Assembly: GCA_049514515.1 (NCBI GenBank)
Contig: JBEKUZ010000004.1
Location: 15,321-79,320, forward strand
Length of the DNA: 64,000 nt
Direction: 5' to 3'
Source: Thermodesulfobacteriota bacterium
Lineage (GTDB): Bacteria > Desulfobacterota > BSN033 > UBA1163
Shown here: positions 3,029 through 46,922 of the stretch, piece after piece
Position numbering within the stretch: the stretch's first letter is position 1
How the letters are laid out: each line of letters starts with the position of its first letter
Notes under the pieces: generated by a model
What the model saw: the letters and a program-made list of their open reading frames with translations, nothing else
Databases searched by the model: none
What the model was told of the DNA's origin: nothing
Position numbers and translations under genes: made by a program

Positions 3029-3091
3029 AACATCCCCATTCTCAAAAAAGTGGACTTCGCAAAACTCGCGTCGTATGTGTCTAAGGAATGC

Positions 3092-4645: not shown

Positions 4646-4654
4646 GATTAATCT

Positions 4655-5680: not shown

Positions 5681-5717
5681 TATACGTGTCCGTGATTCGT
5701 GACTGGTGTCCGTGGAA
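5681..5717. promoter_or_regulatory. CACGGACACG/CACGAATCACG motif abutting the ABC ATPase start codon
   Basis: On the minus strand ...CACGGACACCAGTCACGAATCACGGACACGTATA sits immediately before the ATG. Related copies at 27095-27124 and 53252-53300. Confidence 0.45.
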
Positions 5718-5955
5718 TCTTACTTCGGGTTCTCACTCCGCAATCCGCACTCTAAATTCCGCAATTTTAAAAGTATATTATGGATTTAGTGATTTGCCAA
5801 GGGGTTTTCAGATGCGGTTTTAATAAAATTGAAGACAACTGAAAGGAAATAAACACAGGGTGGCTAAAAAAACGATTTCTTTTTCTTTGAAGCTTGCCGA
5901 ATAGCCGCGATGATCCATTCTTTCAAGAATGACTTTCAGTATTAGTCGTCCCTCC

Positions 5956-6393
5956 TCATTCTGGCATCGTCCATAGAAACAAGCCGGTCGTCTCATCAAA
6001 ATCCCTCTGTAACACCGGCCCATCAAAGACTTCCAGCATGAACTCACATGCAAAAACTACTGTTCCCGACGCGAGATGGCCCCCGTAAGCATTTGCTTTC
6101 TTGTCCGCCAGTGTGATGTGTGCATGGACAAAGGGACTGTTATCCTTGAGTGAGACGTTGCCCACGAGCTTAGTGATTTCAAGCGGCTGATCTATTACAA
6201 AGAATTGATACTCATGCGTTTCCTGGTTGTAGAATGCAAGGCGGGCCCTCTGAACTGCACCCAGCGCCTCGAAACGCGCAAGCTGAATATTTTCCCTTTG
6301 GCAAATATCAGTGATTTCTTCCAACAAGTCACCCCCATGACTTAATTTTCCAATGAATACTTCCCTGGGCTTAACCTTTTTCATAATTGCCAT
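5956..6393 (-). CDS. DUF296/PPC-domain DNA-binding protein
   Basis: ~145 aa, sequence pattern typical of the PPC (DUF296) fold. Confidence 0.5.
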   Translation of the reverse strand: MAIMKKVKPREVFIGKLSHGGDLLEEITDICQRENIQLARFEALGAVQRARLAFYNQETHEYQFFVIDQPLEITKLVGNVSLKDNSPFVHAHITLADKKANAYGGHLASGTVVFACEFMLEVFDGPVLQRDFDETTGLFLWTMPE

Positions 6394-6481
6394 ATCTGCC
6401 CTCGCCTTATATTCTATGCTGAACGCTTTAGGTCAACGGAGGCTGTAACCCGTCACCTAAAGGCAGCGACCAGTCCGGTGC

Positions 6482-6670
6482 TTATCTTATGAAAGGGATT
6501 CCGAGATCCTTGCAGATCTTCCGGGCGAGCTTGTCGTTGATCTCGGCGTGACGGGGGACGGAAGAGCGTCGGTTCTGCTGCGGGTTGCCCCACCATGAAT
6601 GACTCCCGCCTTCGCGAATGAATACACAGCCTTGCTCATGCAGGTGCTTGAGCAACTCCGTGCGCTTCAT
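6482..6670 (-). CDS. hicA: HicA-family toxin (mRNA interferase)
   Basis: 62 aa. HicA/YcfA-like signature (LLKHLHEQGCVFIREGGSHSWWGNP). 4-nt ATGA overlap with the upstream hicB-like gene. Confidence 0.75.
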   Translation of the reverse strand: MKRTELLKHLHEQGCVFIREGGSHSWWGNPQQNRRSSVPRHAEINDKLARKICKDLGIPFIR

Positions 6671-6879
6671 AGGGTAACCGGTTCCTCGGTATAATCGGGA
6701 GCCGCGGCCTGAATTGCTTCCTGACGGTTGAATTCGAGGGCCTCAGCGAGTGTGGTACGCAAGCTGTCGAGCAGTTTCTCCCGTGTTCTTTCCTGGCAGT
6801 TCACCCCAGGCACTTCCTCAATCCATCCAATCCACCATCCGCCATCCTGTTTTGTAACTGCCGTATAAGTATTTGCCAC
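6667..6879 (-). CDS. hicB: HicB-family antitoxin (UPF0150)
   Basis: 70 aa. HicB N-terminal RNase-H-like fold pattern (GGWWIGWIEEVPGVNCQERTREKLLDSL). Translationally coupled to hicA. Confidence 0.7.
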   Translation of the reverse strand: MANTYTAVTKQDGGWWIGWIEEVPGVNCQERTREKLLDSLRTTLAEALEFNRQEAIQAAAPDYTEEPVTL

Positions 6880-7024
6880 GTTCTGTCACCTCAACTCCAT
6901 AATACCATTTCTCATTTTCGTTGTCCATGTACACAACAACCCTCTAGAAAAACCCTCTCACTACAATCTGGGAGCGGCTTTCAGGGATCTCTTTCACCTC
7001 TCCCCAGCGCGAGGCCGTAGTATT

Positions 7025-7102
7025 CAGAGCATCCTGAAAGCTGTCATGCTTTCCAACTCACTGGTTTTGCGTGAGATCGACTTTTTCTACAGGCTCAATG
7101 CC
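7025..7102 (+). repeat. ~78-bp dispersed direct repeat, copy 1
   Basis: CAGAGCATCCTGAAAGCTGTCATGCTTTCCAACTCACTGGTTTTGCGTGAGATCGACTTTTTCTACAGGCTCAATGCC. About 80% identical to 11311-11390, same orientation. Confidence 0.8.
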
Positions 7103-7123
7103 GGACAGCTCCTTATGGGTTTT

Positions 7124-8869
7124 TCAATCATTCATCTGATATTCTCCGTTCAGAGGAAATACATATTTCTCCCAGACACGGCTAACCTGCACGTCATCCC
7201 CCACGGTCCTGATCAGCATAATCTCCCGGCAAAAGTCCCTTTGATCCGCTTTGGTCGTATTCATGCCGTAGATCTGCAGGGCAAATGAGGCGAAGTCCCT
7301 GACCATGAAATCGAATATCTGGTTGAGGATGTCCTTATCCAGATTTTCAATGCCGGACTGTTCAAGAATCAATTGACCATAGACCACAATAGAAAACATC
7401 TCACCAAGGGGTAACGAGAAGGAAGAATCCATATCCTGCTTCTGATCCGGATAAGCTTTGTTCAAGAACTCCTTGAAGAGTTCGATCTGCTTGATGAAAA
7501 CCGCCACATTCGGCAGATCTTTATACGAATCGAAAGTGGATTGATAGTCGTGAAACCGGACATTACCCAGGCCTTTGGCCGGTCCCTGGTTGAACAGGAA
7601 CAAATCGTCTTTGGTCGAAAGGTCGGGTTGCATCGGAGGATGATCGACAGGATTGAAAAAATAATTCTTCATGAACTTGCGGATAAGCTGAATGTTGACA
7701 TGCACAGTGCCTTCAAGCTTGGACGGACCTCGAATTTCGCTGGTGCCCGTGAAGAAGTAGGTGTCCTTCTCAAAACCCTTGGCGGCAATGACATCCCATA
7801 GCAGATTGATAACTTCTTCGGCCTGAAGGGTGACCTTCATCTTGCTCGTGGGATTGTAAAGGAGATAACGCCGGTCTTTTTCATTGGCATTCCGGAAATA
7901 GTCGGTGGCCCGGCGCTGGTAGAGCTTCATCCCTACCAGGCGGAGCCAGGCGTCCATAAAATTTTTTCTCACATGGGGCATATCGGTAACACGGCGGTCA
8001 TAGAGGATACGGTTGGAGGCATGGGTGATGGCCTCGTAAAAACAATGCTCAGCCACCCCGATGGAAGCCGGGCCGATATTGAATTTCCCGATATTGACCG
8101 TATTCAGAGCGGTATCCCAAGCCGCCGAACCCCGCGAGAGGAGGTCTTCTTCCCTGATGGGGTAATCATGAAGGGCGAAGTTGGACACATATTGCTGATG
8201 GGAAATGACGTTCTTTTTCAACTCGTAGGCTTTATGGCGGTAATTGGTGACGAAAAAGGCATAGTCATCTGTGCCGTCCTTTATTTTGCCCATGGTCGAA
8301 ACCATCTCAGCCTCGTTCCCGTTTCCGATATAGTATTTCTCTCCATTGGCAACCCAGGTGCCGTCTCCTTTTGGTGTGAGTGTCGTATCCGCACTGTAGA
8401 TGTCGGCGCCGTGAGCTCTTTCAGACAGGCCGAAAGCAAAGATCGCCCCTCCCCTGAGAAGCTTGGCCGCTTTCTGCTTGGCCTTCTCATTCTTACTCAT
8501 CCAGATGGGGCCCAAGCCGAGGATGGTCACCTGGAAGCAATACCAGTAACCCAGGCCATAAAAGGCCAGGAGTTCGCTGTAGGCGTTGTTGCGGGCCGTA
8601 TCCCAACGGCAATCCGGATCACCGTCACTATAGATCTTGGGTGTAAGCAACTTGGAAAAGATCCGTTCTTTTTTGATAAAATCGACAAACTCCTTGTACC
8701 AGACCTTCTTATTGAAATCATCGAGGAGCCTGGCCTTTCCCATGCTCTCGAAGAATTGGATTGTCTTTGTCATAATGGTCCGCGAATTTTCATCGACCAT
8801 GAGGCCTGTGTATTTTTTAGGTTGAAGCAGGAAGTTCATTTTTCGCTCCTCTCCTGATCCATTGGTCAT
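7124..8869 (-). CDS. Acyl-CoA dehydrogenase family protein (long, ~580 aa)
   Basis: ACAD middle and C-terminal signatures (AFGLSERAHGADIYS..., GNGNEAEM...). Length class resembles AidB/large ACADs. Confidence 0.75.
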   Translation of the reverse strand: MTNGSGEERKMNFLLQPKKYTGLMVDENSRTIMTKTIQFFESMGKARLLDDFNKKVWYKEFVDFIKKERIFSKLLTPKIYSDGDPDCRWDTARNNAYSELLAFYGLGYWYCFQVTILGLGPIWMSKNEKAKQKAAKLLRGGAIFAFGLSERAHGADIYSADTTLTPKGDGTWVANGEKYYIGNGNEAEMVSTMGKIKDGTDDYAFFVTNYRHKAYELKKNVISHQQYVSNFALHDYPIREEDLLSRGSAAWDTALNTVNIGKFNIGPASIGVAEHCFYEAITHASNRILYDRRVTDMPHVRKNFMDAWLRLVGMKLYQRRATDYFRNANEKDRRYLLYNPTSKMKVTLQAEEVINLLWDVIAAKGFEKDTYFFTGTSEIRGPSKLEGTVHVNIQLIRKFMKNYFFNPVDHPPMQPDLSTKDDLFLFNQGPAKGLGNVRFHDYQSTFDSYKDLPNVAVFIKQIELFKEFLNKAYPDQKQDMDSSFSLPLGEMFSIVVYGQLILEQSGIENLDKDILNQIFDFMVRDFASFALQIYGMNTTKADQRDFCREIMLIRTVGDDVQVSRVWEKYVFPLNGEYQMND

Positions 8870-9111
8870 TTTCTAAAGATAGGGCAATTAATGGTCCAAG
8901 GAAAAAACCTGGCAGGATTTGGTCTCAGCTTTTGGCAAGGTCCTGTTGATTGCAGAAGTCTGGCCCTCTCCACTCCGGCAGTCTTTTTTGCCGTGTCCGA
9001 CTTAAGCACCTTGTTATAAGTCTGATGTTTCAGTAAGAAATGATATCTTACTTGCCTTCGCCAGGTCTCCAACTTTGAGCCAATAAATTAATTTTCTCAA
9101 CTCTGAATTTT

Positions 9112-9300
9112 CTAATTGCTAGTAACGTAGCCCTTTTCGCGAATGTCTTCATCATCCAGATAATGAGATAGATTTGAGTGCACATTCTCTAAGTTATCTA
9201 TTGAGAGTGCCTCGATTTTCTTTCGAGCAACTGAAGCATGTAGCTCTCCATTTGATAGACCCTCTAGGATGGAGACGAGTTCTTCGATTTTTGATTTCAT
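9112..9300 (-). CDS. Small hypothetical protein (62 aa)
   Basis: ORF only. Sigma-54-like promoter TGGCGT-N5-TTGC about 50 nt upstream on the minus strand. Confidence 0.3.
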   Translation of the reverse strand: MKSKIEELVSILEGLSNGELHASVARKKIEALSIDNLENVHSNLSHYLDDEDIREKGYVTSN

Positions 9301-9483
9301 GTTTTGTTCTTTATAACGACTCGCTTAACCTGCGCGCGCAACCTGCCGCCCGCAAACCTAACGCCAATGCCGAATCTTGCAGGGTCTGGTCTCAGCTTTT
9401 GATAAAGTCCTCCTTTTGAGATCTGATCCTCATCACTCTTCCCTATGATGAGGTCGGCGGACTGTCGGGCATCCGTTGATTCG

Positions 9484-9702
9484 TTACGCCGCCACTGTGT
9501 GAACGTCGGATGGAAGTCTGCTAAGAATCAATTCCTTTAATTGAATCTTCTTGCTGGCGTTATCAATATCAATACCCACCAAATTGCCTTCGGCATCATA
9601 ATCAAGCACGACACCTTCAGAAATCTCCTTGCTCTCGACGCTCGTTTTCTCCGAGAGATCGATATACAGGGAATCGGTCTCCGGGTAATAGTTGAGTTTC
9701 AT
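9484..9702 (-). CDS. DUF2283-family protein (putative antitoxin partner)
   Basis: 72 aa (MKLNYYPETDSLYIDLSE...EGVVLDYDAEGNLVGIDI) typical of DUF2283. 4-nt overlap with the upstream DUF4258 gene. Confidence 0.6.
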   Translation of the reverse strand: MKLNYYPETDSLYIDLSEKTSVESKEISEGVVLDYDAEGNLVGIDIDNASKKIQLKELILSRLPSDVHTVAA

Positions 9703-9941
9703 AGCTTGTACCTCCTGTCAAAAAAAGCATTGTGAATCGTTTTTTTATCTTCCAAAGTCACTACTCGTAAGACACGGCCTTCAAGTTCATCGATTATACC
9801 CCAAAATCGAAAACGCTTAGGTTCCTGAGGTTCGATCTTGAGCGGGTTCTCAATGACGCGAATACACCATTCCCTCTTGAGATATGGACGTTTCCTCAAA
9901 ACCTCTTTATCAAAATATTCTGTAAATCTATATTCAGCCAT
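9699..9941 (-). CDS. DUF4258-family protein (putative toxin partner)
   Basis: 80 aa. The DUF4258/DUF2283 pairing is a recurrent two-gene TA-like module. Confidence 0.55.
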   Translation of the reverse strand: MAEYRFTEYFDKEVLRKRPYLKREWCIRVIENPLKIEPQEPKRFRFWGIIDELEGRVLRVVTLEDKKTIHNAFFDRRYKL

Positions 9942-10249
9942 TAAACAATTAAATTATACCATGTTTCCCAGCGTTTTTTAGAAAAATTTAGGGCAATTTG
10001 CGGGGGGAGTCAAGAAGAAAATCTGGGGACGTCTGTCTAACCTCTAAAGAAATAACGGCAAAACATTGCAGGTGAAAATTATAGGGAGGTAGTTTCGGTT
10101 AGCCCTCGGCAGCTCGAACCTCTTAGAGATATATTTCTGCGGTTAAAAACGCAGTTCTAGGCAATAAATCAGCGTCATTTCTTTGAGATTCAGTTATAAG
10201 TATCAAACACTTACCTTGGTCCAACCCACACACGCGCATCAGCCTGTAG

Positions 10250-11200
10250 TTAGACGACCAGCATTCCAAGAGATGCAATAAGCAAGGCCGAAACAAATTC
10301 TTGGAGCGTATTCGTAACATTTAACAAGTCGATGGATGCCTTCTCTGGTTTGCCAGTATGAAGTATTTGGCTGCGTAAATCGTAACAGTAGATGAAAAAG
10401 CGTTCCGCTGACATTCCCCCGTAATCGCGACTTCCCAATAAGCGCTTCACGAGCTTTCTGCCACTTTGCCTTATTGATTCGTATTTCAGCCACTGTAGGC
10501 TACCCATGAATGACTCTTTTGTTTCTGCCAACATGGCAGAGCGCCGTACCAATTCTGACATATTCTCTACGATAGCTTTGTCCAATTCGGAGCGTTCAGC
10601 AAGCTCAAGTACAGCCTCAATCGACGTCACTAGAGTGATAAGCCTACTCCGGAGGGATACATCAAAGGATGAGGCACAATACAGCTCAAACGCCAATAAT
10701 TGTTTCTCAGTCAGAACGGGGTGCTGGCCAAATGTTTCAGAAAATTGGCCAACGAAGGTAGTTGGATCTTTACCAAGCGTGAACTGGGCGTTCATACGAA
10801 CAAACACCATACCATCTTTGTGTTCGTATATGTCTACACCGTGTACGTCATTCCGAACGGGACGTTTATACATTTCTTCAAACATCTTTATTCCGGTACT
10901 TGTTACGACGCCCCGCAACCGCCCATCACCGAAATCAATCCCGACTCTCTGTCGAACCGCCCAAGCCAAGAGAGCTGCTTTTACCCGTTCAACTGCCTCT
11001 TTCGCCTGTTCAACGGAAGAATACGGGCCGCCTATAACAGCTGCATCTGGGAAATCTTTTATTGGATTTCCTATTCCACCTGACCGGATTCGCAGCTTTT
11101 TACCATCTGCTTCTTCGAAGATCACTTGCTCTTCTGTGTCGATGTTGATACGAGTATCTTGCGAAAGGTGAAATCTAACTCGGAAATCAAAATTAGGCAT
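10250..11200 (-). CDS. Uncharacterised protein (316 aa), C-terminal R-x4-H HEPN-like motif
   Basis: No family recognised. C-terminal ...YDLRSQILHTGKP contains Rx4H. Last gene of the repeat-bracketed segment. Confidence 0.5.
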   Translation of the reverse strand: MPNFDFRVRFHLSQDTRINIDTEEQVIFEEADGKKLRIRSGGIGNPIKDFPDAAVIGGPYSSVEQAKEAVERVKAALLAWAVRQRVGIDFGDGRLRGVVTSTGIKMFEEMYKRPVRNDVHGVDIYEHKDGMVFVRMNAQFTLGKDPTTFVGQFSETFGQHPVLTEKQLLAFELYCASSFDVSLRSRLITLVTSIEAVLELAERSELDKAIVENMSELVRRSAMLAETKESFMGSLQWLKYESIRQSGRKLVKRLLGSRDYGGMSAERFFIYCYDLRSQILHTGKPEKASIDLLNVTNTLQEFVSALLIASLGMLVV

Positions 11201-11310
11201 ATTTACTTACCGTTCGCCTAACGAGCCTGTGGGAAAAACCCCTCACTGCGCTTAGGGGGTGGTTTTCGGGGGTCTCTTGACCCCTCCTCAGCATGAGACC
11301 GTCGCATACA

Positions 11311-11390
11311 GAGCATGCTGAGAGGTCGCATTTTCTTCCACTCGTTGGTTTCGCGCGAGATTGACTTTTTCTACAGCCTCAACGCTAAGG
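11311..11390 (+). repeat. ~78-bp dispersed direct repeat, copy 2
   Basis: CAGAGCATGCTGAGAGGTCGCATTTTCTTCCACTCGTTGGTTTCGCGCGAGATTGACTTTTTCTACAGCCTCAACGCT. Matches 7025-7102. Confidence 0.8.
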
Positions 11391-38938: not shown

Positions 38939-41570
38939 CGACGGCCCTTTTGCGTCGCCCGACCCATCCCAGACCAACACAACCTAAAATTCCCAGGATG
39001 GTTGCTCCAATACCCAACTTAAAACTCAAGGGATCATAAACAAATTCTACCTGATGTGTCCCGACACTCAGAGGAATTGCTCTGAATGTATAATCGGCCC
39101 TATATATTTTGGTTTCTTTCCCATCCACGAAAGCCTTCCACCCCGGATAGTAAGTATCGCTCAATACCAGCAGGCAATCTTTGGGAGCCTTCACCTGAAG
39201 GTCTAACCGGTTATTGCTCTCCGTCAAGATTTGGGCCTTCTGAGGGAGCCCACTGAGCGGCTCCCCTACATCATTCGTTCTTCGTAGGGGCGGCCCTCTG
39301 CGGCCGCTCTGGCTTGGGGTGGCTTCTTCCCCCTTTGCAAAAGGAACGGCGTGGGAACTTATCCATTTGGGTTCTTCTTCAAGAAAAACCTCCTGACCCG
39401 GACGAAATTCATTCTGGAGCATCATCAAAAGCATTTTTTGTAAGTCCATCACTTTGAAGTCTTTTACAAGCCATGCTCTCGGAAGAGGGCTGCGATTTTT
39501 ATATAGCTTTATGGTATTCTCTTTAAGGAGATCTTCCCTCTTTCCCTGAAGCCCTTCAAGGTTTGCATAAATCAACTCAAATTTATGGTTTTTCTCAAGA
39601 AGAGTAACAGAGGTAATATATTTCACACCGTAAAGATCTATGAGTTGCGTTGCTGAAATAGAAGGAGTACTGACAAAAATTCTATAAAGATCATCCGTTC
39701 GTTTTACTCGAATGACGTCAGCTCCCCAAAGGTCATGTAACTGATACAGGAGATTCATAGAAGGATAATGTTTTTCCTTCAATGTATTAAGAAATGAAGG
39801 GTCTCCAACCAAAATTGTAGCGTCTTGCGAAATAGTTTTGGCAGTTGAAAATACTCTAAAAAAGCCTTTGTCCGAAGAAATTGTTTTCAATATTTCAGTC
39901 TTTTGAAAATAGTCCGACGCTTTTTCTTTCCAGTAGTAGCCCATATTACCAAACAGGTCTGTTATCAGGAAAAGGATCAATAGAAGTTTTGTCCAACCCT
40001 TCCATTTCTTCTCGTAGCCGGTCCTTAGCAAGAGAAAGAAAAGAGCCAAGTAGAAGAAAAATCTTTTCGTATGGAAAAGGTTTGCAGAGAGATAATTGAA
40101 TTGCGGAAAATCAATCTCTCTTAGTTTCAAATATTGTTCAATACTTCTATGGCCTAAAGCCAGAAATAAAAGGAGTAGACCACTGATGAGAGAAAGCGTT
40201 GTGAGAAGGTTTTTAATTCTCTTCCCTCCACCCTCTTTTGAGAGATCGAACAACCGCTGAAACCCCATGCCTGCTGTAACAGAGAGGAGGAGAATAAAAA
40301 TATAGAGAAATTTTGCAGGATACCGGATTCCATTGAAAAATGGAATGTACTTAAAAACAAAAGGGTAGAGAGGATTGTAAGCGCCTAACGATAGAAAGAT
40401 CGAGAAGATCATGAGAATGAGAAAGAGCATCTTGTTGTCTTGGTGCGCTTCCGTTCGATCCTTTTCTTCAGAGGATAAGGTGCGGCGATGGGGCATGAGA
40501 AAGAAGATCAAGCTCAGTATAAAGGGAAGTCCTCCCGTATAGAGCGTTTTGAACCAGCATTGAACGGTCCAATATTTTTTCATATCTAAAAAATATCCAT
40601 AGGCATCGGGAAGAAAGAATAGAAGAATATCCTTGGGCGCAAAACTCCATGTGGTTGCTTCTTGATAGGAAATTCCATTTCCCCTGATAGAGTGATGAAA
40701 CAATTCGACAAAAGGGAATAATTGAACTGCGGAGAGAAACAAAAAGAGAATGGAAATAACCAAGAGACTTCTTATTCGTCCCCAATAAATGGGGGCGCTA
40801 CGGACGAATTTGGAAATGGAAAGGCTAAAAGGGGATTTGTGGCGTCGGGGTTTATCCCCGACAGAGTTGGCATATGGAAAGGGGGAGAAAATCACCATGA
40901 TTAAGAGAACAAAAAAATTACCATAGACAATTTCTATCCCTCCGCCCAAAAAAGAAATAGTGATCAGAATAGCCGTAAAAATCTCATTTTTTAAACCCCG
41001 TCCGTTGATCGCCCTTCTGAAAAACATCATGATCAAAGGCGTCCAGATACTCGAAAGGAGAATGGTCAGCAAACTATGGACGGAAAGGAGATACCCGCTG
41101 AGCATAAATGTCAGGCCCGAGATAAGGGAACCTGTTGCATTTATCTTAAAGTCTCTAAGGAGAAGGTAGGTGAATAATCCGCCCAAGAAGAAATGAAGAA
41201 TGATGATGGCATTAAAGGCCACATCGAAGGGGAGAAGAAAAAAAAGACCATTTAAGGGATAAAGGAGGGCATGCTGGGGGTTAGCAAAGAAGGGTTGGCC
41301 GGAGAATTGATAGGGATTCCATAAAGGGAAACTTCCATGCTTGATGCTTTCGACCCAGAAGAATCGCGGTGGAATGAAATAAGGACCTAAATCCCTTTCT
41401 ATGAGCAGAAACCTTTTCTCAAGGAGGTCATAAAAAAAGAACAGGGATAAAAAGAAAAGGGCCAGAACAGCCAAGAAATCCGGTGATCTGACCCATCCTA
41501 TTTTTTCTCTAATCTTTTCAATCACAAGGAGGCTGGTTTTACTGTATTCCTTCCTTATAAATCTCAACAA
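38910..41570 (-). CDS. YfhO-family polytopic membrane protein (GT-C-like putative glycosyltransferase)
   Basis: N-terminal region with GPYF...LWNPYQFSGQPFFANPQ..LYP, typical of YfhO. More than 12 TM helices plus a C-terminal periplasmic domain. The track start at 41570 is TTG without an SD, so the exact start is uncertain. Confidence 0.65.
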   Translation of the reverse strand: MLRFIRKEYSKTSLLVIEKIREKIGWVRSPDFLAVLALFFLSLFFFYDLLEKRFLLIERDLGPYFIPPRFFWVESIKHGSFPLWNPYQFSGQPFFANPQHALLYPLNGLFFLLPFDVAFNAIIILHFFLGGLFTYLLLRDFKINATGSLISGLTFMLSGYLLSVHSLLTILLSSIWTPLIMMFFRRAINGRGLKNEIFTAILITISFLGGGIEIVYGNFFVLLIMVIFSPFPYANSVGDKPRRHKSPFSLSISKFVRSAPIYWGRIRSLLVISILFLFLSAVQLFPFVELFHHSIRGNGISYQEATTWSFAPKDILLFFLPDAYGYFLDMKKYWTVQCWFKTLYTGGLPFILSLIFFLMPHRRTLSSEEKDRTEAHQDNKMLFLILMIFSIFLSLGAYNPLYPFVFKYIPFFNGIRYPAKFLYIFILLLSVTAGMGFQRLFDLSKEGGGKRIKNLLTTLSLISGLLLLFLALGHRSIEQYLKLREIDFPQFNYLSANLFHTKRFFFYLALFFLLLRTGYEKKWKGWTKLLLILFLITDLFGNMGYYWKEKASDYFQKTEILKTISSDKGFFRVFSTAKTISQDATILVGDPSFLNTLKEKHYPSMNLLYQLHDLWGADVIRVKRTDDLYRIFVSTPSISATQLIDLYGVKYITSVTLLEKNHKFELIYANLEGLQGKREDLLKENTIKLYKNRSPLPRAWLVKDFKVMDLQKMLLMMLQNEFRPGQEVFLEEEPKWISSHAVPFAKGEEATPSQSGRRGPPLRRTNDVGEPLSGLPQKAQILTESNNRLDLQVKAPKDCLLVLSDTYYPGWKAFVDGKETKIYRADYTFRAIPLSVGTHQVEFVYDPLSFKLGIGATILGILGCVGLGWVGRRKRAVVSKPPDPLL

Positions 41571-41703: not shown

Positions 41704-42075
41704 TTACCACGTAGTATGTGCCGGACAGGTAATATTGGGGGGGGTAGCTGCATCTATTGAAAAACTATACGTAGCCGCTCCCACGGTTATAGTCAGATAG
41801 GTAGCATCTGAGCCAGCAACTTGAACTCCCTGCACTCCGGCAGAACCAACAATGCCCGTCCAATCCTCCGTAGTGGTTGTAACGTTCAATACGCGAGCTG
41901 CATACAATAGGGTATTCGCGGCTCTAAGGCCTCCTAATACCCCCCTTGCCGTGCCATCTTGAGCTTGAGTTGTCAAATCGACATATCTTGGGATGGCAAC
42001 TGCCGCAAGAATCCCGATGATCACAATAATTACGATTAACTCAATTAACGTGAAGCCCCTCTGATGTCTTAGCAT
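41704..42075 (-). CDS. Type IVa major pilin (MshA/PilA-like), copy 1
   Basis: MLRHQRG|FTLIELIVIIVIIGILAAVAIP. AAGGAG RBS. The start is trimmed to match the 7-aa leader of copy 2. Confidence 0.85.
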   Translation of the reverse strand: MLRHQRGFTLIELIVIIVIIGILAAVAIPRYVDLTTQAQDGTARGVLGGLRAANTLLYAARVLNVTTTTEDWTGIVGSAGVQGVQVAGSDATYLTITVGAATYSFSIDAATPPNITCPAHTTW

Positions 42076-42169
42076 ACATGCTCCTTTCCAAATCTTCAAG
42101 ATAAAACCCTTCCTGTAACGGAATTTTCTCTAAAATGAACTGCAGTCGTAAGCAACAACAGAGCACCTG

Positions 42170-42255: not shown

Positions 42256-42627
42256 TTACCACGTAGTATGTGCCGGACAAGTAATAATGGGGGGAGTACC
42301 CGTATCCATTGAAAAACTATACGTAACCGCTCCCACGGTTATAGTTAGATACTGAGTACCTGAACCAGAAACTTGAACTCCCTGCAATCCGGCAGAACCA
42401 ACAATGCCCGTCCAATCCTGCGTAGTGGTTGTAACGTTCAATATGCGAGCTGCATATAACAGGGCATTCGCGCTTCTAAGGCCTCCTAATATCCCCCTTG
42501 CTGTGCCATCTTGAGCTTGAGTTGTCAAATCGACATATCTTGGGATGGCAACTGCCGCAAGAATCCCGATGATCACAATGATGACGATCAACTCAATTAA
42601 TGTGAAGCCCTTCCGATTTTTAAGCAT
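42256..42627 (-). CDS. Type IVa major pilin (MshA/PilA-like), copy 2
   Basis: MLKNRKG|FTLIELIVIIVIIGILAAVAIP. About 85% identical to copy 1. GGAGGAG RBS. Confidence 0.85.
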   Translation of the reverse strand: MLKNRKGFTLIELIVIIVIIGILAAVAIPRYVDLTTQAQDGTARGILGGLRSANALLYAARILNVTTTTQDWTGIVGSAGLQGVQVSGSGTQYLTITVGAVTYSFSMDTGTPPIITCPAHTTW

Positions 42628-42722
42628 ATTTTCTCCTCCTTGTCGAGAATTTATTGGTATTCACTCCATTTTGCACAATTTAATATCAGCTTGGAAATTC
42701 CTTGTCAAGTGAATTAGTTAAC

Positions 42723-42739
42723 AGCAATATTTATGCCAG
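42723..42739 (-). promoter_or_regulatory. Sigma-54-type (-24/-12) promoter candidate for the pilin genes
   Basis: Minus strand CTGGCAT-AAATA-TTGCT matches TGGCAY-N5-TTGCW, about 85-100 nt upstream of the pilin-2 ATG. A sigma-70-like TTGACA-N17-TATTAA lies just upstream as an alternative. Confidence 0.5.
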
Positions 42740-42897
42740 TCGAATCCAAAATTGGCAAAATCATTATACTAATAAAAAAATAAATGATTTCAAATAGTTA
42801 GTTGATGGCGGGTAGTTATTTTGAATTTAACAAGGATCAGCTTGCTAAGAAAAATGGACAAATTTTGCATGTTGGACAAAAATTGTTCGTTTTTTTG

Positions 42898-44041
42898 GTA
42901 ATTATTTACTTGACACACAAGAATTTTTATGCTACATTAATCTTAACAAATACTTGAAAGGAATATCTCATGGAAACAACAATTCAATTCCCAAAAACCT
43001 TACAGGAAGCAATCGCCTACTTTTCTGATTCTGACCGATGTTTTGAATATGCGGTAAAACTTAGATGGCCGAATGGAAAAATCACTTGCCCCCGTTGCGG
43101 ATCGGATAAACACTCTTTCATTTCAACACGTCGCCTTTGGTGGTGCAAGGGTTGCAAACAACAATTCACCATGAAAGTAAATACCATCTTCGAGGATAGC
43201 CCTCTTGGTATGGATAAATGGATGACTGCCCTTTGGTTGTTAGTGAATTGTAAAAATGGAATCAGTAGTTGCGAAGTCGCCCGTGATCTTGGAGTTACAC
43301 AAAAGACTGCATGGTTTATGTTACATAGACTACGCCTTGCTATGCAGACCGGATCATTCTCTAAACTTGGCGGAGAAGTTGAGGTTGACGAAACATTTAT
43401 TGGTGGCAAGGCCAGAAACATGCATCCCCAAAAGAAGAGCCTTAGAGTTACCGGAAGAGGGGGGAAGGATAAAGTCCCCGTTATGGGAATCTTGGAGCGT
43501 GGCGGAGAGGTTAGGACAGCCATCGTCCCAAGCCGGAAGAAGAAAGTTCTTCAAAACGAAATCAAGAAGCATGTTAAGGCAGGAAGCGCACTTTATAGTG
43601 ATGCCTTGCGGTCTTATGATGGGCTTGATTCAGAATTTGCTCACAAAGTCATTGACCACGCCGTTGCATACGTTGACGGTAAAGTCCATACAAACGGCCT
43701 TGAAAACTTCTGGAGTCTTTTGAAACGTAGCTTGAAGGGGACCTATGTCAGTGTAGAACCTTTTCATCTCTTCCGTTACTTGGATGAACAGAGTTTTCGT
43801 TTTAACAATCGGAAAGAAATGAATGATTCGGAAAGATTTGAAGAAGTGATGAGCCAAGTTTTAAATCGTCGCGTTACCTTTAATCAACTCACTGGCAAAG
43901 AAATTTCTACGACGCAACTCAATTAACCACAAACGTCAAGGACGGGGCAAGCGAAAGAAAAACTAACTCTTTCGCCTATGCCCTGTCTTACATTTTTTCT
44001 CTGCTTCTTTAATTTCGGACTTTGGTACCTTAAATAATTTC
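42898..44041 (+). mobile_element. IS1595-family insertion sequence (single transposase ORF). The ends are approximate.
   Basis: A DDE transposase with an N-terminal zinc ribbon fills the interval. Imperfect terminal inverted repeats GTAATTATTTAC (left) / GAAATTATTTAA (right, reverse complement). Transposase terminator hairpin at 43943-43995. No clean target-site duplication recognised. Confidence 0.5.
42970..43926 (+). CDS. IS1595-family transposase
   Basis: N-terminal zinc ribbon (CPRCGS...CKGC) + DDE domain (...VEVDETFIGG...YSDALRSYDGL...HAVAYVDGKVHTNGLENFWSLLKR). Confidence 0.9.
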   Translation: METTIQFPKTLQEAIAYFSDSDRCFEYAVKLRWPNGKITCPRCGSDKHSFISTRRLWWCKGCKQQFTMKVNTIFEDSPLGMDKWMTALWLLVNCKNGISSCEVARDLGVTQKTAWFMLHRLRLAMQTGSFSKLGGEVEVDETFIGGKARNMHPQKKSLRVTGRGGKDKVPVMGILERGGEVRTAIVPSRKKKVLQNEIKKHVKAGSALYSDALRSYDGLDSEFAHKVIDHAVAYVDGKVHTNGLENFWSLLKRSLKGTYVSVEPFHLFRYLDEQSFRFNNRKEMNDSERFEEVMSQVLNRRVTFNQLTGKEISTTQLN

Positions 44042-44103
44042 TTTAATGTGTTCTCAAAGTTCGTCTTTGCTTTGTTGCCTTCAATCATTTTAGGTTTCAT
44101 AAC

Positions 44104-45030
44104 TCACTCCGATAATTTAATTGAAAGACCTTCAAGAAATTCCTTTGTCCTCTCCATAATGCTAAGCGCTGGTTCTTCATCGTAGCTTTCCCTTGCATGG
44201 GCAACAAATATACGGTAACCGTTTTTAAAATGTCTAAATTGAGAAGCGGCTTCTGAACAAAATTTCAGTTCTTCGTCTCTTGCTGTACTTCTGGGAAGTT
44301 GTTGCTGTGTTTCTATTTTTTTTTCAATCTCTTTTATGAGAGCATTCCATTCAGCAAGATTAATCTCAAAAGGGAAAATCACGTTTAAATGTTGAGCCAA
44401 TGCCCGCAAACCTATTTCTGCTGCTCGCATTGAATGAAATACAGAAGCAGTATATTCACCAACAGTAAAAGAGTTCCCCGCATGTTGCAATTCCCTTAAC
44501 GCTTTTGGGAAAAAAGATATAAAACGCTCATTGAAATCTGATCGTTCGTAATATTTAGCTCGATGGGATGGAACAAAAAAGAATAGATGTTGACTCATTT
44601 CGACCTTAACTGCTTTTATTAATATCTCTAAAGTTTCTGAATTGCTTGGCGGAATGTCAAGTGCATCTTTTAATAAAGTTGAAGCGATTTTAAGATGCAT
44701 ATTATCACAATGGGTTTTTAATTTATTCAATAATTTTATAAAATCTATTTTCTCTTGATCTGTCAAAACCATTTCTTTATCTAACTCGCCAATATGGAGA
44801 CAAATTCCAATATCGTTGATCGTTTCTCCCATTTCTATGTATTCACTTGCTGCAAATTTAAGCATGTCTTCTAAACTCCAAAGTCGGAAAGGATTTTTGA
44901 CCCATGGCAATAGATGATCGTCCGAATCATTATCGCTTAATGAGGTTTGTGTGTCAAGTATAAATGGTTGGGGAAGATCAGGAGATTTTCGACGAGAAGA
45001 AAAAAATTCTTGCATTTGGCATACCTCCAT
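44104..45030 (-). CDS. Uncharacterised protein, possible HEPN-like (R-x4-H) domain
   Basis: Low-GC (~35%) gene. ...MRAAEIGLRALAQHLNV contains Rx4H. No confident family. Confidence 0.4.
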   Translation of the reverse strand: MEVCQMQEFFSSRRKSPDLPQPFILDTQTSLSDNDSDDHLLPWVKNPFRLWSLEDMLKFAASEYIEMGETINDIGICLHIGELDKEMVLTDQEKIDFIKLLNKLKTHCDNMHLKIASTLLKDALDIPPSNSETLEILIKAVKVEMSQHLFFFVPSHRAKYYERSDFNERFISFFPKALRELQHAGNSFTVGEYTASVFHSMRAAEIGLRALAQHLNVIFPFEINLAEWNALIKEIEKKIETQQQLPRSTARDEELKFCSEAASQFRHFKNGYRIFVAHARESYDEEPALSIMERTKEFLEGLSIKLSE

Positions 45031-45130
45031 GCTAAGATTTGGTTAGTACGGCCAAATGCGTTAGTTCTAAGGAAATCGGACTGCCATCCGATCTTCTTAT
45101 TCCTTCCGACGAGCGTTAATCCATAATAGC

Positions 45131-45787
45131 ATGGAGGACGCTCGGATGCAAGTCTTATTGTCTTTTAAACAACAAAAAATACTTAGAGCAATTAAAATCG
45201 TGTTCCCAAAAGTCAAAAATACGTGGCAATATTTTGAATCCCCTGGATATGTAGGGGTATTCGGTGCCATGACTTTATTTTATTTATCAGTAACACAGGG
45301 GCATATATACGTTGGATTATCTATCATAATTCTTGGAATATTTTTTGGATTTCTGGCTTCTTATAATTCAGGTAGACATAAATCAACTGACTTGGTTGAT
45401 GAATATGAAGAAAGATTTTTTATAAGAATGAAAGCAGAAAGGAAACATGCCGCCCAATACTTATTGGGAGAAATAAAAAACAATGCTTGCCTAAAATGGG
45501 TTCTTGATTACCTTGAAGCTCCAATAGCAGAAAAAGTTGTTAAAGAGCAAATTGATACTATGCAAGTTTACAGTTATTTCCGGCACTGGATCGAGTTGTA
45601 TTGGCAAGCAAGCCAAAAAGACATTCAGATATACCGCAAGAATGATCCTGGCGCGTGGCCAACATTAGGTAAGCTCTATAATATTATGATCACTCTTGAG
45701 AAAAAAGAATTAGGAGAACGATACGTCGGTTGGAATGAAGAACGTGTTGAGGAAGCATTAAAAGACGAAGCAAGTCTTGTGCTATAG
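45131..45787 (+). CDS. Uncharacterised membrane protein (2 predicted TM helices)
   Basis: Low-GC gene divergent from the gene at 44104-45030. TM hairpin GYVGVFGAMTLFYLSV...LSIIILGIFFGFLASY. Confidence 0.4.
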   Translation: MEDARMQVLLSFKQQKILRAIKIVFPKVKNTWQYFESPGYVGVFGAMTLFYLSVTQGHIYVGLSIIILGIFFGFLASYNSGRHKSTDLVDEYEERFFIRMKAERKHAAQYLLGEIKNNACLKWVLDYLEAPIAEKVVKEQIDTMQVYSYFRHWIELYWQASQKDIQIYRKNDPGAWPTLGKLYNIMITLEKKELGERYVGWNEERVEEALKDEASLVL

Positions 45788-45845
45788 TTCCATTTTGTCC
45801 AGTCTCAACCTCTGTGTGTCAAATATATAATTACCGTTTTTTTCA

Positions 45846-46922
45846 TTATCGGCGAGGACTTTCTCCCCTTATCTTTATTAATTCTGCTACAATGCTGACA
45901 GCGATTTCCTCAGGGGTTTCGGAGTTGATGTCAAGTCCGATGGGTGCGTGAACTCGTTCCAGCGTCTCTTTGGAGATTCCTTTTTTCTTCAAACTCTGAT
46001 AAAGAGTCTTAATCTTCTTCTTCGACCCTATCATTCCGATATACCGCGCGTTTGTCTTGATTGCCTGTTCCAGCACGAAGCCATCATAAAGATGACCTCG
46101 GGTGACGATGACAATATATGAGGAATCATCAACATCGAGTCGGTCGAAGCACTTCTCAAATTCTGACACGACGACTTCGTCCACTTCTGGGAAACGCTCT
46201 CGATTGGCAAACATCTCCCGGTCATCGATGACCATCACCCTGAAATGGACTTTCTTGACAAGAGGAGCCAACTGTTCAGAAATATGGCCTCCCCCAAAAA
46301 TATAGACCGTCGGCTCACAAAAAACGGGTTCCAGCAGGACTTCCACCTTTCTCTGTTCAGAATTTAAGACTGACATCTTCGGCCTTTTCTCTTTTAATAA
46401 TATCTTACCTTCACTCAAAAGCTTTTTCCGTAATTCCACTCCGCCAAATAAAGAACCGAACTTCTCTCCGGAAGTCTTCATCAATATCTTCGGGCCTTCT
46501 CTTTTTGGAAAATCAGCATCCACCGAGACCAGCGTAGCCAAAATAGCTGACCCGCCCTTCTGTCTTATCTTTGCCGCCTCCTGGTAGATGCTTAAGAAAT
46601 CTTCTTCAAGGGGTTCCAAAAAGATGTCAATATTTCCCCCGCAGATCAGCCCACCTTCTGCCAATTGCTCAGACGTAAGGTCGAAATGGAGAATTCGCCC
46701 CTTCCCTGTCTCCATCACTTTTTGAGCTTCTTGCCAAACCTCTGCCTCAACGCATCCTCCCCCAATAGAGCCGACAGAAGTTCCGTCTCCTTTAACCAAA
46801 TATTTCGCGCCCACTGCCCTGGGGGCAGAGCCTATCCGGTTGACCAGAGTAGCAAGTGCACACTTTTCTTTGTTCTCAAGGGCTCTCACTATATCAACGT
46901 ATATGTCCTGCACGATCCTCAT
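45846..46922 (-). CDS. xdhC: XdhC/CoxI-family molybdenum-hydroxylase accessory protein
   Basis: XdhC_CoxI N-terminal domain + XdhC Rossmann C-terminal domain (VYIFGGGHISEQLAPL). Confidence 0.85.
   Translation of the reverse strand: MRIVQDIYVDIVRALENKEKCALATLVNRIGSAPRAVGAKYLVKGDGTSVGSIGGGCVEAEVWQEAQKVMETGKGRILHFDLTSEQLAEGGLICGGNIDIFLEPLEEDFLSIYQEAAKIRQKGGSAILATLVSVDADFPKREGPKILMKTSGEKFGSLFGGVELRKKLLSEGKILLKEKRPKMSVLNSEQRKVEVLLEPVFCEPTVYIFGGGHISEQLAPLVKKVHFRVMVIDDREMFANRERFPEVDEVVVSEFEKCFDRLDVDDSSYIVIVTRGHLYDGFVLEQAIKTNARYIGMIGSKKKIKTLYQSLKKKGISKETLERVHAPIGLDINSETPEEIAVSIVAELIKIRGESPRR

Follow-up and report, generated by a model that had tools for sequence, protein, structure and literature searches.

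Within the 64-kb window (the whole stretch of DNA that was analyzed), a transposase gene of the IS1595 family (42970-43926, plus strand) and xdhC (45846-46922) flank two divergent open reading frames (ORFs), one encoding a 308-aa protein (44104-45030, minus strand) and the other a 218-aa protein (45131-45787, plus strand). The initial annotation had these ORFs and their neighbors right but placed them in an islet beside an IS1595 element, whereas both genes lie inside the insertion sequence (IS), between its terminal inverted repeats (IRs) and within its 8-bp target-site duplication (TSD). The left repeat, IRL (42897-42919, plus strand; GGTAATTATTTACTTGACACACA), matches the right one, IRR (45813-45835, minus strand; reverse complement, GGTAATTATATATTTGACACACA), at 21 of 23 positions, and these are the only two sites of the pattern across 64 kb, against a chance expectation of 0. 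Directly outside them stand two identical copies of the TSD, GTTTTTTT, the left one (42889-42896) abutting IRL and the right one (45836-45843) starting 2 nt past the xdhC stop codon; the insertion site is AT-rich intergenic DNA just past this gene, of which 8 bp were duplicated. From left to right, the element is composed of IRL, the transposase gene (plus strand), a gene for a 45-aa peptide (minus strand), the 308-aa ORF for a HEPN-domain protein (minus strand), a relic IR, the 218-aa gene (plus strand), and IRR. Since the IRs and the TSD enclose the transposase gene, the 45-aa ORF, the HEPN gene, and the 218-aa gene, the islet genes are cargo of the IS, and 42897-45835 is almost certainly one 2,939-bp IS1595-family transporter IS, with passenger genes that do not serve transposition between its IRs. 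This corrects the annotation from an IS plus an adjacent islet to a single 2.9-kb mobile element with exact boundaries; we infer mobility because the IRs and TSD are intact.

The 318-aa product of the transposase gene is a DDE enzyme (PF12762, 8.9e-44) with an N-terminal zinc ribbon (PF12760, 1.7e-14) and scores 194.8 bits against NF033547, the NCBIfam model of IS1595 transposases (cutoff, 75); this domain arrangement and IRs flanked by an 8-bp duplication identify the IS1595 family. Duplications of 8 bp are a trait of that family and were also found in ~30 related elements. IRL is similar to its counterparts in related elements (consensus, ~GGyrATaTTATACTTGAC), with GGTAATTAT as its tip and GGCGATATTAT as the tip in clade-A relatives. 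In ISfinder, the ISNwi1 subgroup of the family is characterized by IR tips of the form GGnnATTAT and a DDEK catalytic signature. The tip GGTAATTAT presumably fits these ends, and 2.9 kb falls within what we take to be the size range of passenger-carrying ISNwi1 members (1.75 to 4.75 kb).

The islet DNA is foreign by composition and mobile. The GC dip reported initially is real, with GC contents of 0.356 (44104-45030) and 0.361 (45131-45787) compared to 0.476 for the 64-kb window, and the islet is the lowest-GC 1,700-nt window within it. GC3 values of the two islet ORFs are 0.26 and 0.31, compared to ~0.50 to 0.54 in flanking host genes, and a k-mer scan of tetranucleotide usage confirmed the element as the most atypical stretch of the 64 kb, higher ranks being taken only by windows that overlap it. 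A relative lacking the islet at the same site, as envisaged at the outset, did not turn up among 24 contigs encoding an identical XdhC: none has an empty insertion site, and 24 of 24 carry the element. The empty-site junction is reconstructed as ...AAATTGTTCGTTTTTTTCATTATCGGCGAGG... The interval 42700-46000 contains no Rfam match and no tandem repeats, including tandem direct repeats beside the toxin gene of the kind that mark type III toxin-antitoxin systems.

A HEPN protein with an invariant Rx4H motif

The 308-aa maximal ORF encodes an extra N-terminal 4-helix domain of ~130 aa followed by a C-terminal HEPN domain (aa 176-300; 44131-44505, minus strand). Described earlier as family-less, the protein matches the Pfam HEPN model PF05168 at 28.7 bits (gathering cutoff, 22), with residues 176-300 aligned to positions 7-112 of the 117-position profile; 18 of 33 family members match this model at E values of ≤0.01. 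The modeled domain (pLDDT, 88 to 97) adopts the all-alpha up-down helical bundle of the HEPN superfamily, with corresponding fold matches, and structure prediction bears out the fold that had been suspected. The 308-aa protein is a true member of the HEPN superfamily. The Rx4H motif by which it was first noticed, R209...H214 (LRALAQH), is not conserved, both residues being present in 23 of 254 relatives. The catalytic-type motif is R273-I-F-V-A-H278 (44197-44214, minus strand; translating to RIFVAH), in which R273 and H278 are both kept in 247 of 247 family proteins covering the site. The initial description as a HEPN-like Rx4H protein holds with this other motif, and the lack of Rx4H conservation that would have spoken against it is true of R209/H214 but not of the protein. 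The motif lies between model helices 249-269 and 285-302, and the helix-2 cluster T194/H199/R202/E205 ("TASVFHSMRAAE") is also invariant. Judged from its sequence, the protein is probably an active RNase.

The annotated ORF probably starts too far upstream. Residues 1 to 41 are unconserved, have pLDDT values below 50, and span the relic IR and a predicted promoter. This sigma-70-like promoter (44929-44957, minus strand; TTGACA-17-GATAAT) faces the HEPN gene and is by consensus match the best in the region (11 of 12); the transcription start predicted from it therefore lies near 44922, downstream of the annotated HEPN ATG. The likely true start codon is TTG at 44908-44910 or ATG at 44863-44865, which gives a protein of ~253 to 268 aa. 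The second-best match, again to the consensus only, is a predicted sigma-70-like promoter facing the transposase gene (42910-42938, plus strand; TTGACA-17-TACATT; 10 of 12 plus a TG extension), and promoter matches in the region are in total no more numerous than in shuffled sequence. The -35 box of the transposase promoter lies within IRL and that of the HEPN promoter within the relic, or ghost, IR, whose inner half (44947-44962, minus strand; TATACTTGACACACAA) sits in the 5' extension of the HEPN ORF. It is an exact match to the clade-B inner IR core, with the outer ~8 nt, the IR tip, mismatched. The IR of two-gene relatives such as L009 sits at this very position, just upstream of the HEPN gene, and the ghost IR probably once formed the right end of an ancestral element composed of transposase and HEPN genes.

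Are the passengers decaying, non-functional hitchhikers or chance ORFs in AT-rich DNA? Their region is low in GC, and the probably spurious 5' end of the HEPN ORF would fit such a reading, but HEPN genes have dN/dS values of 0.12 to 0.22, with purifying selection even between copies in one genome, catalytic residues invariant in 247 of 247 proteins, and thousands of intact relatives. The family of the 218-aa protein is tiny, with only 7 relatives among 5.8 billion clusters, but this protein is 42 to 75% identical across five full-length relatives in different contexts (the sixth, P0127, is fragmentary, at 124 aa), and its C-terminal domain is modeled with high pLDDT. Decay or chance is scarcely credible for the passengers as a whole and is effectively refuted for HEPN.

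Other searches returned little. A sequence search against solved structures gave nothing useful, phage records gave no match, and PHROGs gave weak matches only, all function-unknown. NCBIfam and PADLOC-DB v2 have no match for either the HEPN or the 218-aa protein. The defense predictor suggested at the outset was also negative for the HEPN family: across 33 members, PADLOC-DB v2 gave only scattered single matches with E values of >0.006.

Linkage to IS1595-type transposases and exchange of cargo

The HEPN family has ~7,500 representatives at 50% clustering. An IS1595-type transposase gene lies within 3 kb of the HEPN gene in 64 of 90 (71%) non-redundant loci of relatives with at least 1.5 kb beyond the HEPN stop, a figure from loci gathered by HEPN search that does not give the share of transposases carrying HEPN. 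The pairing recurs in dozens of unrelated bacteria from many phyla and spans transposase clades only ~37% identical; in the 26 loci without a transposase, HEPN has no recurrent neighbor. HEPN and transposase genes are tail-to-tail in 55 loci and operon-like, with HEPN first, in 9. In ~30 loci, IR pairs and perfect 8/8 TSDs surround both genes, and one genome contains two copies, 1.2 Mb apart, with 97% identity over their full IR-to-IR length and each with its own TSD. The minimal element, L009, holds nothing besides HEPN and transposase, because it spans 1,853 bp with a gap of 8 nt between the two genes. Among co-directional loci, convincing outer IRs were found in L052 only, where they enclose the HEPN-transposase unit together with a TSD. 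An IR between the two genes, which would leave HEPN outside the IS in co-directional loci, was considered and rejected: their junctions are 3 to 20 nt or overlapping and therefore leave no room for an intervening IR, and the unit in L052 has its IRs and TSD on the outside.

HEPN and transposase divergence are positively correlated (Mantel r = 0.37 to 0.42; 0 of 2,000 permutations as high), and HEPN evolves faster, with within-clade identities of 32 to 36% compared to 56 to 57% for the transposase. Among plasmid records, 482 have transposase matches, and the only HEPN-domain matches are 5 remote, unannotated ones outside IS1595 contexts. Our literature search found no paper linking HEPN with IS1595 and no conserved HEPN-transposase unit of such size or breadth, and curated ISfinder entries may list the ORF as "hypothetical." The recurrence points to a large, apparently undescribed class of RNase-carrying insertion sequences.

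The window transposase falls in clade B of HEPN-carrying elements (mean identity, 57%), and the window HEPN is 51 to 55% identical to clade-C HEPNs compared to 25 to 35% to those of clade B. By sequence comparison, the element is a chimera, with clade-B transposase, IRs, and small peptide and a HEPN closest to clade-C elements. Clade-A transposases 59 to 62% identical to those of HEPN carriers bear other cargo, namely, a hypothetical protein plus a PIN domain in two loci (L162 and L163) and the 218-aa gene in another (L156), and two more of these transposases have no adjacent HEPN (L040 and the second copy in L021). Because related transposases carry PIN RNases instead, the HEPN gene occupies an exchangeable cargo slot.

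The breadth of the linkage could be taken to mean that HEPN is an element-intrinsic accessory factor of IS1595-type elements and not host-directed cargo, either an RNase that adjusts transposition, for instance through processing of the transposase mRNA or of convergent/antisense transcripts, or a factor that aids element retention or spread in analogy to accessory genes such as TnpB of IS200/IS605. The association is ancient, reaching several transposase clades and many phyla, but within a single clade, some transposases are accompanied by PIN or other cargo and some lack an adjacent HEPN, and HEPN is kept without a transposase in 26 of 90 loci. Correlated distances would also result from an element-intrinsic function, but HEPN evolves much faster than the transposase, and clades have exchanged cargo, the 2,939-bp element itself being an example. 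The geometry is fixed, with 3' transcript overlap likely in the 55 tail-to-tail loci and operon-like junctions in the other 9; since both predicted -35 boxes lie inside IR sequence, expression could couple to transposase binding at the ends; and purifying selection persists even between copies of one genome. Yet most IS1595-family elements, as the plasmid records illustrate, have no second gene. Weighing these points, we consider the accessory-factor explanation unlikely. In a more specific form, the lone HEPN would be a novel type of accessory gene dedicated to the IS, an antitoxin-less RNase with an IR-embedded promoter that serves the element, and this has a small but appreciable chance of being correct. 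Such a gene might couple RNA cleavage to transposase expression, punish element loss or silencing, or act against RNA-based control by the host. Were this true, thousands of IS1595-type elements in many bacterial phyla would be two-component transposons, similar in concept to IS200/IS605-TnpB, with clade-specific small basic peptides as a third conserved component of the machinery.

The 45-aa peptide and the 218-aa membrane protein

The gene for the 45-aa Lys-rich peptide (43963-44100, minus strand) starts 3 nt after the HEPN stop. The peptide has no match in Pfam and belongs to a family, collected by iterative HMM search, of IS accessory peptides that we call B-type, with the motif ..EF.RF..L...VLSVPK.E.. 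and a basic tail. B-type peptides occur in 25 of 28 clade-B transposase loci and in 0 of 52 loci of other clades, and in 8 of 8 testable cases they lie within the element as defined by IRs and TSD. The close spacing to HEPN, which suggests translational coupling and recurs in three other loci (L032, L148, and L150), would suit a toxin-antitoxin pair composed of HEPN and a small basic peptide; most clade-A and clade-B elements contain a small peptide gene, and in PIN-carrying elements the gene for an A-type peptide comes directly after the PIN gene or overlaps it. However, peptide type tracks the transposase clade and not HEPN, A-type and B-type peptides have no detectable homology, and peptide strand and position vary, with the clade-A peptide on the transposase strand. 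Moreover, the closest HEPN relatives (L009 and L012) have no such peptide, and L009 leaves only its 8-nt gap. A toxin-antitoxin pair of this kind is quite improbable.

The 218-aa protein (AF2 pLDDT, 81) was correctly described as a small protein with two hydrophobic segments: a hairpin at aa ~39-79 (segments ~39-56 and 59-79; Kyte-Doolittle maximum, 2.33) precedes a soluble, helical C-terminal domain, for which no convincing fold match was found. Relatives of its gene are located inside other IS1595-type elements (L156 and L157) or against an IS1-like transposase gene (L011). Unannotated neighbors of 264 to 308 aa beside these relatives were considered as divergent HEPNs and rejected, as hmmsearch with the family profile gave E values of ≥0.2; they include an IS1-like transposase whose match to PF03400 stays below threshold.

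The initial annotation had joined the HEPN effector and the 218-aa membrane protein into a two-gene abortive-infection system in a foreign islet. The HEPN assignment is real, and the two genes are adjacent, divergent, and alike in low GC (0.36) and low GC3. A 38-nt inverted duplication with 71% complementarity is common to their 5' ends, and both ORFs therefore begin "ME...MQ." The proposed pair does not recur, however: outside its own strain, the 218-aa gene is absent from ~125 of ~125 non-redundant HEPN-family loci, and no HEPN-family gene is present in any of the 4 loci of 218-aa relatives. Each gene is separately an IS passenger, PADLOC has no match for either protein, and the relic IR that separates HEPN from the 218-aa gene marks the latter as a later addition. 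The 218-aa gene is a second, independent IS passenger, located beyond the former element end, and a two-gene system is very unlikely.

Possible roles of the HEPN cargo

What might a lone RNase do inside an insertion sequence? The protein would act as a metal-independent ribonuclease using the invariant R273-x4-H278, probably as a dimer like other HEPN RNases. It appears to work alone, as neither an antitoxin nor a nucleotidyltransferase or membrane protein is conserved as its partner. A toxin that lacks an antitoxin has to be held in check somehow, and we speculate that the variable N-terminal 4-helix domain may be a sensor or gate. Because HEPN is stand-alone and its slot exchangeable, with a PIN RNase module held there in sister elements, we read it as conflict-type cargo that would pay for, or enforce, persistence of the IS in its host and not as a transposition cofactor. 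A toxin- or defense-type role is plausible but tentative, and an abortive-infection-like role of HEPN alone is possible. The reading of the whole, an IS1595 transporter IS with a stand-alone toxin or abortive-infection-like HEPN RNase as exchangeable cargo, is the one we favor, by a modest degree of confidence.

Insertion sequences are usually viewed as one transposase gene between two ends, and the IS accessory genes TnpB and IscB have earlier rewarded study. In the sampled loci, a large uncharacterized HEPN family travels mostly inside IS1595-type elements, and sister elements carry a PIN RNase. If these proteins are toxins or defense effectors, small ISs would be an overlooked vehicle by which conflict genes spread and would give rise to "orphan" HEPN genes in genomes; should they act for the element instead, they would represent a new kind of IS accessory function.

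How does this element compare to known systems? Passenger-carrying ISs, or transporter ISs (tIS), were defined from the IS1595 family (Siguier, Gagnevin & Chandler 2009, Res Microbiol 160:232, cited in PMC3129680). The present element shares with them the zinc-ribbon DDE transposase, short terminal IRs, 8-bp duplication, and non-transposition genes between the IRs; in our literature search, we found no description of the passenger as a HEPN RNase. With HEPN-MNT systems (HepT/MntA, type II/VII toxin-antitoxin), the classical context of PF05168, it has in common the superfamily, the Pfam model, Rx4H, and the helix-2 signature FH..R/Q.AE. In contrast to them, it has an additional N-terminal 4-helix domain of ~130 aa, and neither the element nor the minimal 1.85-kb elements contain an MNT gene, nor does one recur among neighboring genes. 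The survey of HEPN proteins by Anantharaman et al. 2013 (PMC3710099) includes AbiD/F, AbiJ, RloC/PrrC, and RnlA/LsoA among its classes and mentions integrons, but not transposases or IS elements, as carriers. Our protein differs from these single-protein effectors in having no sequence-level or PADLOC match to them, and unlike HEPN Abi proteins and anticodon nucleases, it has no evident restriction-modification or phage context.

The closest parallel in cargo is found in Tn3-family transposons, which carry integral RNase toxin modules (PIN, Gp49, and one HEPN) beside their transposition genes (Lima-Mendez et al. 2020, PMC7157771). Their toxin-antitoxin modules go back to several independent acquisitions and have been exchanged through recombination, and they are proposed to stabilize the transposon or replicon (PMC7157771). 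The toxin of a Tn3-family transposon is always accompanied by its cognate antitoxin (HEPN with MNT) and lies beside the res site, whereas the HEPN gene here has no conserved partner, belongs to a different, two-domain HEPN family, and resides in a small cut-and-paste-type IS without a resolvase. The alternation of HEPN and PIN in IS1595-type elements parallels the diversity of toxins in the Tn3 family.

Boundaries and composition of the element

A 308-aa ORF on the minus strand (44104-45030, the HEPN gene) and a 218-aa ORF on the plus strand (45131-45787, a hydrophobic hairpin protein) make up the islet that the initial annotation placed next to an IS1595 element. Both ORFs and the GC dip are real. 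GC content is 0.34 to 0.38 over 43800-45800, with 0.356 and 0.361 for the two genes versus 0.476 for the whole window, and GC3 is 0.26 and 0.31, respectively, versus ~0.50 to 0.54 for xdhC and the genes beyond it. The islet is the lowest-GC 1,700-nt segment of the 64 kb, and a k-mer scan by tetranucleotide usage marks the islet/element region as the most atypical stretch of the window. Other low-GC stretches (0.30 to 0.39) occur outside the element, at 39400-40400, within the 3' half of a YfhO-like membrane-protein gene, and at 42600-43000, intergenic between a pilin gene and the left terminal inverted repeat (IRL), indicating that GC alone does not delimit the mobile element here.

The two genes lie not beside the insertion sequence (IS) but inside it. 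IRL (23 nt, GGTAATTATTTACTTGACACACA, 42897-42919) pairs with the right repeat, IRR (23 nt, 45813-45835), at 21 of 23 positions, and identical 8-base target-site duplications (TSDs; GTTTTTTT, 42889-42896 and 45836-45843) stand directly outside each repeat. The IR pair encloses the IS1595 transposase gene (42970-43926) and both islet genes, which have the transposase gene on one side and xdhC on the other; a search of the window found no further match to the IR pattern, and none is expected by chance. Together, IRs and TSD are the signature of a single transposition event of a 2,939-bp element, and that the islet genes belong to one IS1595-family element is close to certain. The IR tip, GGTAATTAT, and the element size fit what we take to be the ISNwi1 subgroup and its passenger-carrying members; annotations of related transposases give "IS1595 family" only, with no subgroup.

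The single copy in the window is inserted in AT-rich, intergenic DNA 2 nt past the xdhC stop codon. A check for relatives lacking the islet at this site found the element there in all 23 contigs read that encode the identical HEPN protein and all 24 read that encode the identical XdhC, with no empty site among them. Directly upstream of the insertion site are two nearly identical tandem type IV pilin-like genes (131 and 123 aa, N_methyl motif; 41704-42099 and 42256-42627, both minus strand). The element now stands between these genes and xdhC, and its insertion could affect the region upstream of them.

A HEPN family that moves with IS1595 transposases

PF05168 (Pfam HEPN) matches residues 176 to 300 of the 308-aa protein with 28.7 bits against a gathering cutoff of 22, and also matches 18 of 33 aligned relatives. 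The protein is thus, by its sequence, a genuine HEPN protein, as first proposed, and not family-less. The R-x4-H motif originally cited (R209-x4-H214) is variable, present in 23 of 254 sequences; the true one is R273-IFVA-H278 (44197-44214, minus strand, translated), which is invariant in the family alignment, with both residues in 247/247 retrieved family proteins. A helix-2 cluster (T194, H199, R202, and E205) is likewise invariant and resembles the classical HEPN "FH..Q.AE" signature. The N-terminal four-helix domain (~residues 53 to 148) is far less conserved, and residues 1 to 41 are unconserved with pLDDT of <50. Purifying selection acts on the gene, with dN/dS of 0.22 for two HEPN copies of one genome and 0.12 to 0.14 for more diverged pairs. 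That the islet genes are nonfunctional DNA has next to no probability.

A word-indexed search returned 151 HEPN relatives, and an exhaustive profile search yielded 7,497 representatives at 50% clustering (E ≤ 1e-3), 3,040 of them at E ≤ 1e-30. The sampled set comprised 144 loci, drawn from genomes, metagenomes, and viral contigs; de-duplication, omission of the window's own strain, and a requirement for at least 1.5 kb after the HEPN stop left 90. An IS1595-type transposase lies within 3 kb downstream of HEPN in 64 of these (71%), convergent in 55 and co-directional in 9. The first relative examined for context, which is also the closest (L009; HEPN identity, 52%; Logan SRR14366794 contig, 75-11384), carries HEPN tail-to-tail with the transposase in a minimal 1,853-bp element, whose IR (GGTGATTATC..CTTGACAAA) encloses these two genes only and whose TSD is TATTTTTA. 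A terminal-repeat scan found IR pairs around both genes with a perfect 8/8 TSD in ~30 convergent loci, with an IR consensus of ~GGCGATATTATACTTGACrTAC and element lengths of 1.85 to 3.8 kb. Where the two genes are co-directional, 3 to 20 nt separate the HEPN stop from the transposase start, or the two overlap; these loci look operon-like and leave no space for an intervening IR. Among them, L052 has outer IRs and the TSD TTAATCAA.

Two copies 1.2 Mb apart on one contig (CAVOON010000003.1; L017 and L021) are 97% identical from IR to IR, with unrelated flanks and different TSDs, indicating that HEPN and transposase move as a unit. The copies differ in the HEPN-transposase spacer by an indel or replacement (~5949-6282 in L017 versus 5949-6330 in L021), and 2 kb away from the L021 copy is a third, HEPN-less transposase copy (83% amino acid identity). 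In 26 of the 90 loci, HEPN occurs without a transposase, and no recurrent neighbor was found among them. One keeps a C-terminal transposase remnant and another (L089) a small peptide typical of one transposase clade (A-type; see below), implying that at least some are decayed elements. HEPN is co-mobile with the transposase and has an invariant R-x4-H motif and no conserved partner. PADLOC models matched neither the window proteins nor the HEPN family, and no tandem repeats or Rfam match indicating an RNA partner were found in the element region.

Probable accretion of passenger genes, and small peptides of the IS backbone

The second islet gene has a separate history. Only 7 relatives of the 218-aa protein were found; none of the HEPN loci sampled outside the window's strain has the 218-aa gene, and no locus of its relatives has a HEPN-family gene. 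In L156 (5840-8772), the genes for a homologue of the 218-aa protein, an IS1595 transposase, and an unknown protein of 308 aa stand within an IR pair (..CACTTGACAAA); L157 (423-3043), also an IS1595-type element, has an IR pair around a 277-aa membrane protein, the homologue, and a transposase; and in L011 (3269-4702) the homologue is convergent with an IS1-like transposase across a 3-nt gap. The 218-aa protein is therefore an independent IS passenger and not a HEPN partner. The initial annotation's two-gene abortive-infection system, in which HEPN and this membrane protein form a functional pair, fits their adjacency here and is most improbable, since the genes are never together elsewhere and each is separately IS cargo. 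The 218-aa protein has a hydrophobic hairpin (~residues 39 to 79) followed by a confidently modeled helical domain with no convincing structural or family match.

Probable traces of the joining remain in the window. The 5' extension of the HEPN ORF contains a stretch identical to the inner IR core (TATACTTGACACACAA, 44947-44962, minus strand), with the outer 8 nt, the IR tip, mismatched, and two-gene relatives have their IR exactly there, just upstream of HEPN. In the two highest-ranking sigma-70-like promoter matches of the region, the -35 box is the TTGACA of the IR, although such matches are no more numerous than in shuffled sequence: a putative promoter in IRL faces the transposase gene, and another in the relic IR (TTGACA-17-GATAAT, 11/12, 44929-44957, minus strand) faces HEPN, both by consensus match only. 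Relic and promoter matches suggest an ancestral transposase-HEPN element of ~2.07 kb that ended near 44970. They also make the 308-aa call (303 aa in NCBI/JGI) probably ~40 to 55 codons too long and suggest that the true start is TTG 44908-44910 or ATG 44863-44865, positions at which many homologues start. In this scenario, the former end was later extended by the 218-aa gene and a new functional IRR. Between the 5' ends of the divergent ORFs is a 38-nt inverted duplication (44997-45034/45127-45164), by which both begin "ME...MQ"; it may be the scar of the rearrangement, or, at 71% complementarity, a chance likeness.

HEPN itself also appears to have been exchanged. Four clades are distinguished among the transposases of HEPN elements: A (28), B (13, window included), C (L009 and L012), and D. 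The window's transposase (57% mean identity), IRs, and small peptide are of clade B, whereas its HEPN is 51 to 55% identical to clade-C HEPNs and only 25 to 35% to those of clade B, a discordance that points to cargo exchange between IS lineages.

The small peptide is a 45-aa Lys-rich ORF (MKPKMIEGNKAKTNFENTLKKLFKVPKSEIKEAEKKCKTGHRRKS, 43963-44100, minus strand) that begins, in frame, 3 nt beyond the HEPN stop (TGA GTT ATG). An iterative HMM search of 18,443 small ORF segments from 133 loci gave a family of 26 members, with the motif ..EF.RF..L...VLSVPK.E.. followed by a basic tail and no Pfam match. It occurs in 25 of 28 clade-B-transposase loci and in 0 of 52 of other clades, at varying position and strand, and all 8 cases that could be tested place it within the boundaries set by IRs and TSD. 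Clade A has an unrelated, A-type peptide (basic N terminus, then ..QSERFIETAREIGADE..E.FE+AFKKV; 69 loci, L013 to L151), encoded on the transposase strand downstream of clade-A transposases, for example, in L095 (gap 1187-3570, minus strand) and L014 (5799-5961, minus strand), and also in PIN-carrying plasmid elements (L162, 4774-4959; L163, 3122-3310). It seems to be part of the conserved backbone of the clade-A lineage. Peptide type follows transposase lineage, so the peptide is not an obligate HEPN partner. An antitoxin role, which its place behind HEPN might bring to mind, is very unlikely: the peptides track the transposase clade, and the 8-nt HEPN-transposase gap of L009 (clade C) has no space for such a gene.

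Cargo or cofactor, and related systems

HEPN and transposase divergences are correlated (Mantel r = 0.37, rising to 0.42 when the window is left out; none of 2,000 permutations gave as high a value), as would suit a transposition-linked accessory function intrinsic to the element. The correlation is loose, with the nearest transposase neighbor among the five nearest HEPN neighbors in only 20 of 44 elements, and HEPN evolves much faster (within-clade identity, 32 to 36% versus 56 to 57%). Clade-A transposases can also carry other cargo. In L162 (Roseomonas marmotae p1318-1, 2480-4959) and L163 (Methylobacterium oryzae pMOC1, 757-3310), transposases 59 to 62% identical to those of clade-A HEPN carriers precede same-strand genes for a 266- to 288-aa protein that lacks a Pfam match, a PIN-domain RNase (annotated as VapC), and the A-type peptide. 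The transposases of L156, which carries the 218-aa gene, and L015 share 60% identity, and the second transposase copy of L021 (83%) and the copy in L040 (79%) have no adjacent HEPN. With such swapped or absent cargo, the accessory-function reading is unlikely. The loose correlation, the faster HEPN, the cargo changes, the solo loci, and the negative partner and PADLOC searches lead us to favor a slot in which RNase-type conflict genes can be exchanged, rather than a cofactor that transposition requires.

The occupant of that slot probably has RNase activity. It would be an active, metal-independent enzyme, dimerizing by analogy with other HEPN RNases and perhaps gated by its variable N-terminal domain. 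As a toxin or abortive infection-type effector, it could make the IS beneficial or addictive to its host; this toxin or defense role is a tentative proposal, somewhat short of an even chance.

The concept of transporter ISs, which carry passenger genes, comes from the IS1595 family itself (Siguier et al. 2009, cited in PMC3129680), and the window element is another of this known kind. The nearest published analogue of a HEPN-carrying IS is the Tn3 family, where RNase toxin-antitoxin pairs, PIN toxins and one HEPN-MNT pair, are embedded in the transposition module (PMC7157771); in contrast, the present element has no antitoxin and is a small IS. A comprehensive HEPN survey (PMC3710099) mentions integron-borne HEPN genes but no transposase- or IS-linked family, and our literature search found no paper connecting HEPN with IS1595. 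As far as checked, the large lone-HEPN family in IS1595-type elements, the PIN alternatives, and the clade-specific peptides are undescribed. Though not the proposed two-gene system, the element is well delimited and experimentally tractable, and such elements bear on what accessory genes do for insertion sequences.

Hosts in genome records include Thermodesulfobacteriota, Alpha- and Gammaproteobacteria, Acidobacteriota, Chloroflexota, Verrucomicrobiota, and others. The L009 element sits in a phage-like region, with DnaN-like sliding clamp and DUF5131 genes on one side and a GpA-type large terminase on the other, suggesting that these ISs also ride phages or prophages. A 4.1-kb contig labeled Candidatus Woesearchaeota archaeon and binned to an archaeal MAG (L043, CAYGYN010000038.1) holds an intact HEPN-transposase element, complete with IRs and a perfect TSD (TTTAGAAA), reflecting either cross-domain spread or mis-binning.
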